A DNA stretch of 64,000 nucleotides from Escherichia coli (GTDB lineage Bacteria; Pseudomonadota; Gammaproteobacteria; Enterobacterales; Enterobacteriaceae): NCBI RefSeq assembly GCF_016026235.1, contig NZ_CP065613.1; one strand, 5' to 3'. Below, one piece after another: positions 6,375-63,959 of the stretch. Each line of letters opens with the position of its first letter. Within the stretch, counting starts at the first letter, position 1. The notes below the pieces were generated by a model that had not been told where the DNA came from, did no database searches, and saw nothing but the letters and a program-made list of their open reading frames with translations. The position numbers and the translations under genes were made by a program.

Positions 6375-6621
6375 TTGTTATACCTCTTGAATATTCCTGA
6401 TGGGGCAAGTCTTCACCCACCCCGGCTGTTCGGCCTGCCCGGCATAACTCCTCACCGGGACCAGAAGCAAAAAAATACCGACCCAGGTACAAGTCCCAGG
6501 TCAGCTACAATTCACATTTTGATAGTCATTTTACCCTGAAGTTCCCGAAGGGTCATCGTTTACTTTATAGGGCGTTGCGCCGTAGTATGACGGCTCGATT
6601 CCAGGTTGTTAGCGCGAGATT

Positions 6622-16207: not shown

Positions 16208-16860
<653 letters not shown>

Positions 16861-29527: not shown

Positions 29528-29648
29528 GTGCGGCCTGAAAAACAGTGCTGTGCCCTTGTAACTCATCATAATAATTTACGGCGCAGCCAAGATTTCCCTG
29601 GTGTTGGCGCAGTATTCGCGCACCCCGGTCTAGCCGGGGTCATTTTTT
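29528..29648 (+). ncRNA. arcZ: Small regulatory RNA ArcZ (SraH/RyhA)
   Basis: Sequence GTGCGGCCTGAAAAACAGTGCTGTGCCCTTGTAACTCATCATAATAATTTACGGCGCAGCCAAG... ends in the hairpin caccccggtctagccggggtc plus T6; lies between elbB and arcB, convergent with arcB. Confidence 0.9.
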
Positions 29649-43007: not shown

Positions 43008-44498
43008 TTAACTTTTGGTTTTGACTAAATCGTTTTTGGCGCTGCCAAATGGCACGGCACCGCTAAATGGTTTGCCGTCGATAGCGTCATGAGTACGCAA
43101 TGCTTCCGGGCGCAGCCAACGCTGAACGCGGGAAGGCATATCCAGACCAATCAGCAGGATCACCACAAATGTCAGACTGAACGAGAGCGATGCCAGCGCA
43201 GTACCCAGATCCAGACGTTGAGCGATCAACGCGCCGATGATTGGGGCCAGTGCACCGCCCAATGCGCCAACGTTGTAGGTAAAGCCCAGGCCCGCTGCAC
43301 GCTGGTCGGTATCGAAATAACCGCCAATCAGTTTTGGTAAGATCCCGGCGATCCCTTGTCCAAGCATTTGCTGGAAGAACAGTAACAGACCGAGCACCCA
43401 GACGTTTGCACCGCCAATCGCAAATACCGGAATAATCAGCAGCTGCGAGGCCAACAGACTACAAACGTACGCTTTGCGGGTTCCCAGCCAGTCACCGAGG
43501 AAGCCACCGACGCAGCACCCCACCGCCGCGCCAAAGCCACTAAAGAACAGCACATTGGCGACAGTATGCGGGTTATAAGCCAGATCGGTTTTCAGATACG
43601 TTGGCAGCAGCGCCTGAATCGGCCATGAGTAGAGGAAAGCAAACAACACGACCACCATCAGCATTACGCCAGTTGGCCAGCGTTTGCCCGTACTCTGCAC
43701 CATAAAGCTGATAAAGATTGCGGCGCATAACAGCCCAAGAACAGCGACGATCGCGGCATTTTGCAGGTTACCGGCGAAGCAGAACCACAGCGCAGTAGCC
43801 GCCGCCAGTGTCATTACGATATTGGCAATGGGATGTTCACCACGGTAGAGAATATCCACCATTGTGCGTACTGGTGCTTTACCTGCGTGTTTCTCTTTCC
43901 AGTCTTCCGCTTCCGGGATGTTTTTACGCAGCCAGAGAGCAAAGATGATTGGCAAAATGCCGATAAAGAACAGCGCACGCCAGCCCCAGACCGGAACCAC
44001 CAGGCTGTAGACCTGAGCGGCAACGACGGCCCCCACAGAGAAGCCTGAAATCAGAAAGCCACTGGCTTTGTTACGCAGATGTTTTGGCCAGCTTTCAATG
44101 ACATAGGTGGCGCTGGAACCGTATTCACCCGCCATCCCCATGCCGATGACCAGACGAGCGATAAACATGGTGATGTAGCCTGGCGCAAAGCCGCAGGCCA
44201 GCGTCCCGGCCGAGAAGAGAACGATGCTGGTGACCATTGCCAGACGACGCCCGTAGCGGTCACCCATAGCGCCGAGCATCAGGCCGCCGAACCAGCGAGA
44301 GATAAAGGCTGCGGAGATCAGACTTGCCGCCTGCACCGTCGTCAGCCCGAATTCACCTTGTACTTCGGTGAGTACCAGGGCGATTAAAACGAAATCAAAA
44401 CCGTCAAGCAGATATCCCAACCAGGCAGCGGAAAATGCCCGCCATTGTGCACGATTGAGATGGCGATACCACGGGATATTCTGGGTTGTAGTACTCAT
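43008..44498 (-). CDS. nanT: Sialic acid transporter NanT (MFS)
   Basis: ORF track 43008..44528; trimmed to [36 protein letters not shown]..., 496 aa. Confidence 0.94.
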
Positions 44499-44569
44499 TG
44501 TGAGTCTCCCGCGGTGGGCGATGCCCACACGCTTTGGTATGAAAATTGTAGGGTACAGATGCGTTTATT

Positions 44570-44600
44570 TCCCCTCACCCGGTAGGGGCGAGCGAGGGGA
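44570..44600. repeat. GC-rich imperfect palindromic intergenic repeat, copy 1 (nanA-nanT spacer)
   Basis: tcccctcacccggtaggggcgagcgagggga; a second copy tcccctcaccctaaccccagaggagcgagggga at 62415..62447. Confidence 0.6.
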
Positions 44601-44606
44601 AACAAC

Positions 44607-45500
44607 TCACCCGCGCTCTTGCATCAACTGCTGGGCCAGCGCCTTCAGTTCTGGCAGATATTTTTCATCTACCGGACCAAACGGTTTGCGGCACAGCGGC
44701 ACAGAAACAACATCCATATAATGCAGAACAGTTTTCAGGCCGCGGAATACGCCCGTTTTGATCAGTAAATCAATGACTTTATTGCACTCAGTTTGCAGTT
44801 TCTGCGCGGTCTGGATATCGCCTTCTTTCAGCGCCTTCACGATCCCCTGATAGCGCCAGCCCATGATATTGTAAGTACTGCCGATACCGCCGTCTGCGCC
44901 CGCCAGCAAGCCGGAAGCGAAGATTTCGTCGTAACCGTTATAGAGCACCAGATCAGGATGTTCACGACGGATCTGTTCCATCTGATAGAGATCGCCAGAG
45001 GTCTGTTTCAGCGCGCCGACACCAGGCAGCGTAACCAAGGTGTTGATCTGATCCAGGGTCAGTTTTACCCCGCTCAGGGCTGGAATGTTGTACACCACCA
45101 TCGGCAAACCATCCGCCGAATCAATAATTGCCCGATAGTGATCGCAGTGTTCTTCAAAGCTGAAAGGATAGTAGAACGGTGTGACGGCGGAGACGGCATC
45201 GAAGCCATAACGTTTAGCCGATGCCGCAAGTTGTTGGCTTTCGGCGGTGCTGACGCAACCGACGTGGGCGATGAGTTTAATCTTACCTTTCGCCTCTTCG
45301 GCGACGATTTCCAGTACCTGTTCACGCTCGGAAAGGCTTTGTACAAAGGCTTCGCCGGTCGAACCACCCACGTATAAACCGTCAATGCCCTGCTGAATAT
45401 TGAACTGAACCAGGCGGCGCAGACTCGCTTTATCCAGTGCTTGTTGTTGATCAAAAGGAGTCAGGAGTGCAGCCATTACGCCACGTAAATTCGTTGCCAT
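44607..45500 (-). CDS. nanA: N-acetylneuraminate lyase NanA
   Basis: ORF track 297 aa, [52 protein letters not shown]... Confidence 0.96.
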
Positions 45501-61441: not shown

Positions 61442-62371
61442 ATGGAACGACTAAAACGCATGTCGGTGTTTGCCAAAGTAGTTGAATTTGGCTCTTTTAC
61501 CGCCGCCGCCAGACAGCTACAGATGAGCGTTTCGTCCATCAGTCAGACGGTGTCAAAACTGGAAGATGAGTTGCAGGTAAAGCTGTTAAACCGTAGCACA
61601 CGCAGCATTGGCCTGACCGAAGCCGGTAGAATTTACTACCAGGGCTGCCGTCGTATGCTTCATGAAGTGCAGGATGTTCATGAGCAACTGTATGCCTTCA
61701 ATAACACCCCCATCGGGACGCTACGCATTGGCTGTTCTTCAACTATGGCACAAAATGTTCTCGCCGGGCTGACAGCCAAAATGCTGAAAGAATACCCAGG
61801 TTTGAGCGTCAATCTGGTTACCGGAATTCCAGCCCCCGACCTGATTGCCGACGGTCTGGATGTGGTGATCCGCGTCGGCGCGTTGCAGGATTCCAGCCTG
61901 TTTTCCCGCCGTCTTGGCGCGATGCCAATGGTGGTGTGCGCCGCGAAAAGCTATCTCACACAATACGGCATACCGGAAAAACCCGCCGATTTAAGTAGCC
62001 ATTCATGGCTTGAATACAGCGTGCGGCCCGACAATGAATTTGAACTGATTGCACCGGAAGGGATCTCGACTCGCCTGATCCCGCAAGGGAGATTTGTGAC
62101 TAATGATCCGATGACGCTGGTGCGCTGGCTAACGGCGGGTGCCGGGATCGCCTACGTGCCGCTGATGTGGGTGATCAACGAGATCAATCGTGGGGAGCTG
62201 GAGATCCTGCTGCCGCGTTATCAGTCAGATCCACGCCCGGTTTATGCGTTATATACCGAAAAAGATAAGCTGCCGCTGAAGGTACAGGTCGTGATCAACT
62301 CGCTGACGGATTATTTTGTTGAGGTCGGTAAATTGTTTCAGGAGATGCACGGGCGCGGGAAAGAGAAGTAA
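61442..62371 (+). CDS. aaeR: LysR-family transcriptional activator AaeR
   Basis: ORF track 309 aa, MERLKRMSVFAKVVEFGSFTAAARQLQMSVSSISQTVSKLEDELQVKLLNRSTR..., LysR HTH. Confidence 0.94.
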   Translation: MERLKRMSVFAKVVEFGSFTAAARQLQMSVSSISQTVSKLEDELQVKLLNRSTRSIGLTEAGRIYYQGCRRMLHEVQDVHEQLYAFNNTPIGTLRIGCSSTMAQNVLAGLTAKMLKEYPGLSVNLVTGIPAPDLIADGLDVVIRVGALQDSSLFSRRLGAMPMVVCAAKSYLTQYGIPEKPADLSSHSWLEYSVRPDNEFELIAPEGISTRLIPQGRFVTNDPMTLVRWLTAGAGIAYVPLMWVINEINRGELEILLPRYQSDPRPVYALYTEKDKLPLKVQVVINSLTDYFVEVGKLFQEMHGRGKEK

Positions 62372-62414
62372 TTCATATTGTACTGTTACGTTGTACAAAC
62401 CTGTGCCAACGGGT

Positions 62415-62447
62415 TCCCCTCACCCTAACCCCAGAGGAGCGAGGGGA
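62415..62447. repeat. GC-rich imperfect palindromic intergenic repeat, copy 2 (aaeR-tldD spacer)
   Basis: tcccctcaccctaaccccagaggagcgagggga shares both arms with the copy at 44570..44600. Confidence 0.6.
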
Positions 62448-62498
62448 CCGTTCGTGCACGTAGAAAGATTAATTATCCTACTGAAAATAATGAAATTA

Positions 62499-63959
<1,461 letters not shown>

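Follow-up and report, generated by a model that had tools for sequence, protein, structure and literature searches.

BoxC repeats of Escherichia coli were first described next to envM/fabI and have been known since the 1990s. To our knowledge, no function has been assigned to them in 30 years, nor do we know of a transposase or binding protein associated with them. According to Holder et al. 2015 (PMC4666352), who renamed it TMECO (triplex motif of E. coli), the BoxC motif had meanwhile been published a second time under the name of potential intrastrand triplex (PIT) elements. Table 1 of that study comprises 23 TMECO copies in strain MG1655, which carry either a TTA loop (type A) or a CCG loop (type B), and 22 BoxC sequences were reported by Petrillo et al. 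2008 (PMC2267715); all of these 22–23 K-12 copies are intergenic. BoxC/TMECO elements measure roughly 36–50 bp and are composed of three G/C-rich blocks. Single strands of full-length TMECO can fold in vitro into a hairpin plus a third strand, as evidenced by CD and NMR, and the same authors refer to 'degenerated TMECO sequences' and to a 'palindrome effect', i.e. partial loss leaving stable stem-loops (PMC4666352). Published tests of PIT/BoxC elements revealed polymerase arrest in vitro and no effect in vivo, neither promoter nor terminator activity, and no bias in the functions of neighbouring genes (PMC4666352). A complete element (TTCCCCTCACCCTAACCCTCTCCCCAGAGGGGCGAGGGGACCGT) was found by direct reading of the MG1655 fabI-ycjD spacer and is listed as no. 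9 among the TMECO copies of PMC4666352 (Table 1). The full BoxC layout consists of three similar G/C blocks (CCCCTCACCC, loop, CCCTCTCCCC, loop, GGGGCGAGGGG). Some 160 nt from the full BoxC of the fabI-ycjD spacer, the stop codon of MG1655 ycjD (DUF559) is overlapped by a BoxC-like two-block hairpin (CCCTCGCTCTTTCAGGGAGAGGG; locus L002, 21397–21419), indicating that BoxC relics can reach into coding 3' ends.

REP/PU sequences and the BIMEs built around them resemble BoxC in being GC-rich imperfect palindromes of intergenic or intercistronic location at gene 3' ends, which are transcribed into stem-loops without U-tract. They differ from BoxC in representing an unrelated sequence family, and BoxC copy number is about ten-fold lower. 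REP sequences are known to shield the mRNA upstream of them against 3' exonucleases, malE-malF being an example, and those close to stop codons have been linked to trans-translation. Palindromic repeats are known to build up at the 3' ends of genes whether or not they have a function. A third system for comparison are operons with differential decay, in which 26 out of 34 stabilised upstream segments end just past a stable hairpin without U-tract (Dar and Sorek 2018, PMC5927463).

The window, i.e. the whole 64-kb stretch of E. coli DNA analysed here, harbours two related units. Copy 1 (44570–44600, 31 nt; TCCCCTCACCCGGTAGGGGCGAGCGAGGGGA) is read on the minus strand within the nan mRNA and locates to the 108-nt spacer between nanA (44607–45500, minus strand; stop codon at 44607–44609), encoding N-acetylneuraminate lyase with 100% identity to MG1655 NanA, and nanT (43008–44498, minus strand; ATG at 44498), encoding the sialic acid transporter; both cistrons, nanA upstream and nanT downstream, were assigned from the open reading frame list and annotation. 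Copy 2 (element 62413–62455, plus strand; core 62415–62447, 33 nt; TCCCCTCACCCTAACCCCAGAGGAGCGAGGGGA) lies in the 127-nt spacer between aaeR on its left (61442–62371, plus strand) and the convergent tldD on its right (62499–63944, minus strand), both taken from the open reading frame list. It is a BoxC of type A with TAA loop and the C-rich strand on plus; copy 1 is a type-B-like two-block relic. The MG1655 RefSeq annotation marks no feature in either spacer. A sequence-only reading had described both units as intergenic, near-identical and foldable into a GC stem, and direct reading at these positions as well as folding-energy calculations agree with its first and third statements. The second holds for the 11-nt arms, which are identical, and was overstated for the units as a whole: their centres (9 and 11 nt) are unrelated, and copy 1 aligns better with published type-B BoxC (scores of 34.5–37) than with copy 2 (27.5). 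Even the common GAGCGAGGGGA arm has two origins, a CGAG-type duplication of GGGGCGAGGGG in copy 1 and a G-to-A substitution in copy 2. The joint pattern TCCCCTCACCC-N8-16-GAGCGAGGGGA occurs at two sites in the 64 kb, considering both strands, namely at copies 1 and 2, and is expected 0.00 times (100 dinucleotide-preserving shuffles); the single 10–11-mer arms of the units are not significantly enriched in the window, which applies to either arm.

Both units are very probably decayed BoxC (PIT/TMECO) copies that have lost the middle block. They thus represent an ordinary, already known feature, neither a new repeat family nor a demonstrated regulator. With full BoxC they share the blocks CCCCTCACCC and GGGGCGAGGGG, the TAA (type A) or CGG (type B) loops, the flanking consensus, the strictly intergenic location and membership in a family dispersed over about 12–28 places per E. 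coli genome; they differ in possessing two instead of three blocks and a length of 31–33 instead of 36–50 nt. An nhmmer profile constructed from 21 published BoxC copies, from which the aaeR-tldD locus itself had been excluded, retrieved copy 2 as best and copy 1 as second match in the window, and no others. Copy numbers were taken from BLAST place counts and the literature, the pattern search being confined to the 64-kb window. A 61-nt query around copy 2 matched at a median of 12 and a maximum of 23 places per genome and was found in 5,425 of 5,426 complete E. coli genomes; for the full-length MG1655-type 67-mer, a median of 16 and a maximum of 28 BLAST places per E. coli genome were obtained. 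The proposal of a dispersed intergenic family is borne out by these counts. The family is multi-copy and both loci are kept in >99% of the 5,426 genomes, rather than forming an isolated pair at unconserved orthologous sites, the outcome that had been named as speaking against a repeat family. What does not stand is the novelty of that family, since BoxC was among those that the earlier reading itself had proposed for comparison. Likewise, the literal pattern CCCCTCACCC(N8-14)GAGCGAGGGG suggested for a genome-wide search is matched by 0 of the 22 published BoxC copies; rather than the consensus of the family, it captures two derivatives that were truncated independently.

Assignment of copy 2 is straightforward. 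Its profile match (33.3 bits, E=2.2e-9) covers model positions 2–50 with one 6-nt gap, and its MG1655 ortholog is TMECO no. 14 (3,390,494–3,390,529), at distances of 44 nt to aaeR and 53 nt to tldD (PMC4666352), and eco:13_BoxC in the other published list (PMC2267715). Alignment with the MG1655 spacer revealed a 6-nt deletion and two substitutions within the element. The deletion junction falls at 62427/62428 (versus positions 16507–16512 of the MG1655 locus L003), the missing sequence being ACCCTC or an equivalent register flanked by the direct repeat ACCC...ACCC. Of the middle block, only GGGG is left. Different E. coli genomes carry different forms of the aaeR-tldD locus. The window-type 61-mer is identical in 1,408 E. 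coli records, at least 95% identical in 2,491 and 80–90% identical in 2,718; the corresponding numbers for the MG1655-type 67-mer are 924, 2,035 and 2,838. The 80–90% band is read as the respective other allele, because that is the identity expected from two mismatches combined with a 6-nt gap. Both alleles accordingly appear to be common in E. coli, with about half of the 5,426 genomes apparently resembling each.

Additional spacers from other enterobacteria were collected by a DegQ-anchored contig scan, which yielded six nanA-nanT and eight aaeR-tldD spacers among the matches listed, and by NanA look-ups, which contributed five further nanA-nanT spacers. Many of the matches listed in the DegQ-anchored scan were DegP paralog loci, and E. 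fergusonii, Salmonella and any E. coli representative were absent from them. In E. cloacae, the aaeR-tldD spacer (L006, 21170–21275) carries an inverted BoxC pair, one member of which is degenerate. REP-like pairs occupy the spacer in Citrobacter and Pseudocitrobacter, and terminator-like hairpins in Mangrovibacter and Rosenbergiella. Judged from these sequences, the aaeR-tldD spacer is apparently a site colonised repeatedly by different palindromic elements. In E. albertii, the region after aaeR (L004, 20395–21365) is devoid of BoxC; a degenerate REP-like sequence is present there, and the ≥900 nt that come next are not tldD but other sequence, so that either a rearrangement or an insertion has affected the locus.

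In copy 1, the middle block is wholly missing. The profile match is borderline (10.5 bits, E=0.03) and of ambiguous register. The best global alignments were obtained with the type-B BoxC elements eco2, eco10 and eco17, extend into the ATTT...GGGGAAA flanks and contain a 12–13-nt internal gap as well as a 3–4-nt duplication. Because the blocks are self-similar, three derivations align about equally and are not distinguishable; copy 1 could be a type-B element minus its middle block or a collapsed pair. Its MG1655 counterpart (3,372,648–3,372,674) is included in neither the PMC4666352 nor the PMC2267715 list, the older catalogues of ~32 copies lying outside this comparison. The nanA-nanT spacer is identical between the window and MG1655. 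Its 59-nt core is carried by 5,408 of the 5,426 E. coli genomes, identically in 4,418 and with at least 95% identity in all 5,408, and the remainder of the spacer is equally conserved within the species. The E. coli variants of the hairpin affect the base of the stem only (a T insertion and a G-to-T change) and are uninformative. Outside E. coli, a variant of the same relic resides at the nanA-nanT site of E. albertii and a BoxC-like two-block hairpin at that of Kluyvera cryocrescens. The 200-nt spacer of Pseudocitrobacter faecalis contains one BoxC of type A and one of type B, inverted relative to each other, with flanks that can be aligned to those of E. coli.

The sequence-only reading had also set the units apart from REP/PU, which is corroborated here: their arms are CCCCTC/GAGGGG, and the REP core GCCGGATG...CATCCGGC is absent from both on direct reading. 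REP-like cores stand out clearly in orthologous spacers of other genera, where they were recognised by the REP consensus; the two spacers considered here are occupied by REP-like elements in Citrobacter, Enterobacter, Yokenella, Klebsiella, Superficieibacter and Pseudocitrobacter. ERIC/IRU (~127 bp) and RSA (~152 bp) elements were discarded on account of the 31–33-nt size of the units and their unique flanks, which align to single-copy sequence of MG1655. Searches of the window against Rfam at the gathering threshold retrieved neither BoxC unit, and permissive scans of both spacers gave chance-level matches only (E of 1.9 or more). The two Rfam families detected in the window are ordinary features of E. 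coli, namely the greA leader (6470–6591, minus strand, 124.9 bits) and the ArcZ sRNA (29528–29635, plus strand, 120.8 bits).

On the RNA level, copy 1 forms a hairpin (44566–44604, minus strand) with a perfect stem of 16 bp and a 7-nt loop (UGUUUCCCCUCGCUCG/CCCCUAC/CGGGUGAGGGGAAAUA), which starts 2 nt past the nanA stop codon. On the mRNA strand it has a folding energy of -25.1 kcal/mol (z=-4.96), with 0 of 200 shuffles being as stable; the opposite strand reaches -17.6 kcal/mol and is less stable because three of the pairs are G-U. Copy 2 folds with -20 to -23 kcal/mol (z about -2.2) on either strand. Four stem differences exist between E. coli and E. albertii; pairing is kept in all of them, one being two-sided (G-U to C-G) and three one-sided. 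In a covariation test the nan hairpin was not significant (244 of 500 shuffles as good), with only four distinct sequences available. In most of the 12 species that were compared, a stable GC-rich stem-loop starts within about 14 nt of the nanA stop codon; it derives from BoxC in three genera and is REP-like in six.

Several further features were noted in the nan region. The nanA-proximal half of the spacer is a variable slot, filled by REP-like palindromes, in place of the BoxC relic of Escherichia, in Citrobacter, Enterobacter, RIT691, Yokenella, Klebsiella aerogenes and Superficieibacter (slot spacers: L005, 1893–2008; L007, 3606–3666; L010, 3429–3536; L085, 2395–2457; L087, 2395–2531; L088, 2395–2500). 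The nanT-proximal half is conserved in most genera examined, the exceptions being Citrobacter sp. FP75, Enterobacter sp. Bisph1, RIT691 and Yokenella. A second hairpin, unrelated to copy 1, is located in the nanT leader (44511–44532, minus strand; RNA GCGUGUGGGCAUCGCCCACCGC) directly 5' of the nanT Shine-Dalgarno sequence (44505–44510) and is preceded by the conserved UUCAUACCAAAGCG. It is conserved in seven genera with variable loop (98% of cells paired), and its variants comprise G-C to A-U in Salmonella and G-U in K. aerogenes. Covariation was not significant (148 of 500 shuffles as good), and no Rfam family matched. This hairpin may represent an element of nanT translation or processing. 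Finally, a strong RNA 3' end resides 45 nt inside nanA (window about 45455, minus strand; MG1655 3,373,531) according to Term-seq data (Adams et al. 2021, supplement), a hint that nan transcripts are terminated prematurely or processed near the start of the operon.

Other explanations of the two units concern their origin, their structure on the DNA level and their effect on transcription. Copy 1 might not derive from BoxC at all and could instead be a GC-rich hairpin of separate origin, or what is left of a different element, sharing CCCCTCACCC and GAGGGG with BoxC by chance. Its borderline profile score, its absence from both published lists and a centre unrelated to that of copy 2 point in this direction. 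Yet the joint two-arm pattern is expected 0 times by chance, the type-B features (CGG/CCG loop, ATTT...GGGGAAA flanks) are present, full BoxC elements with alignable flanks occupy the orthologous position in Pseudocitrobacter, and similarity to REP or to any Rfam family is lacking, so that a non-BoxC origin is considered improbable. It is still more doubtful that either unit acts as an intrastrand triplex DNA motif causing local genome instability, as proposed for full-length TMECO. The polymorphism of aaeR-tldD within E. coli is in line with reported instability of TMECO loci (PMC4666352). However, a three-block regular expression that matched full elements in MG1655, Enterobacter and Pseudocitrobacter loci matched neither window copy, and the TMECO/PIT triplex definition (C-block, G-block, G-block, stems ≥6 nt) does not apply to them; as two blocks remain, neither copy can form the BoxC triplex, but a plain hairpin only. 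Moreover, the nanA-nanT copy is among the most stable sequences sampled (at least 95% identity in 5,408 genomes), and in vivo footprinting in the original study revealed no protection (PMC4666352). The least credible alternative, which we regard as extremely unlikely, is an intrinsic terminator or attenuator that partly stops transcription at nanA-nanT and at the ends of aaeR and tldD. Stable GC-rich stems at gene 3' ends would agree with such a role, and an attenuating structure in the nan operon had been suggested from sequence. The tails past the stems (AAAUAAAC and AACAACUC; AAAUAAACGCAUCUG after copy 1 on the mRNA strand) are against it: no U-tract follows either stem on either strand, and the stems are therefore not terminators. 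Terminator scans returned zero terminator-like sites at 44300–44800, and one at 62200–62700 that lies inside tldD and none at copy 2. The published tests of the family likewise revealed no terminator activity (PMC4666352), and a Rho-inhibitor-sensitive 3' end of tldD is listed at MG1655 3,390,148 (minus strand; published table), about 350 nt beyond the BoxC element, which suggests that tldD transcripts read through it.

The alternative deserving most attention holds that the nan stem-loop has been exapted as an RNA element: it would be under selection, block 3' exonucleases after cleavage or downstream termination, stabilise the nanA segment and thereby raise the NanA:NanT ratio. Alternatively, the hairpin could slow translation termination of nanA, which is conceivable because it starts only 2 nt from the stop codon. 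Three points are not obviously explained by passive persistence, namely the invariance of the core across 5,408 genomes, the pairing-keeping differences in E. albertii and the stem-loops past the nanA stop across species, which in most genera examined belong to unrelated palindromic repeats (BoxC-derived or REP-like). To these may be added the strand-specific stability of the hairpin (-25.1 vs -17.6 kcal/mol). Against selection, the whole spacer is equally conserved within E. coli, and covariation is not significant (244 of 500 shuffles, four distinct sequences). Furthermore, template switching in quasi-palindromes can produce clusters of palindrome-perfecting changes without selection. With differentially decaying operons, the nan operon shares a stable stem-loop without U-tract directly downstream of the first cistron, and most stabilised segments (26 of 34) do end at such hairpins; it differs in that the 47 positives found among the 390 operons of the differential-decay analysis, nan being one of the 390, do not include it (PMC5927463), and in that no 3' end is documented at its hairpin. 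The Term-seq tables searched contained no 3' end in the nanA-nanT spacer, which is weak evidence because the nan operon is poorly induced in the media used, and published work ascribes no regulatory activity to PIT/BoxC (PMC4666352). Weighing both sides, exaptation is regarded as possible, albeit rather unlikely. If the hairpin had any effect, it would most likely be that of a modest barrier to 3'-to-5' exonucleases favouring the nanA segment, as known for REP in malE-malF; we consider a measurable effect of this kind on the nanA segment rather unlikely. Transcript stabilisation by the nan hairpin, the other role suggested from sequence, is at most a possibility. A more far-reaching version, which we deem quite unlikely, would view the site past the nanA stop as a selected 'hairpin slot' filled in each lineage by whichever palindromic family is active, with the BoxC relic exapted as REP equivalent that adjusts, relative to nanT, how stable nanA mRNA is or how its translation terminates. 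The slot may then be filled by BoxC in Escherichia, Pseudocitrobacter and Kluyvera, and by REP-like elements in Citrobacter, Enterobacter, Yokenella, Klebsiella and Superficieibacter.

The reading preferred here, i.e. decayed BoxC copies lacking the middle block, would entail the following course of events. A stretch of 6 nt (ACCCTC) flanked by short direct repeats of ACCC would have been deleted from copy 2, and about 12–13 nt from copy 1, which in addition would have acquired a small CGAG-type duplication; deletions and duplication probably reflect replication slippage between the element's own short repeats. The remnant, consisting of an outer block and its imperfect complement, would form a plain GC-rich stem-loop. 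Such relics would survive chiefly as passive passengers of permissive spacers at the 3' ends of genes and, where transcribed, would be expected to fold without terminating transcription.

Beyond correct annotation, the significance of these findings is slight, as BoxC was re-found and one of the two loci had already been catalogued. Published BoxC counts understate the footprint of the family, because two-block relics such as the one in nanA-nanT escape triplex- and HMM-based catalogues. The coexistence of three-block and two-block alleles at aaeR-tldD versus the near-invariant nan relic offers a contrast that can be used to test the third block as driver of instability. If it were true that the nan hairpin affects the expression of nanA or nanT, this would be the first function for a BoxC-derived sequence.
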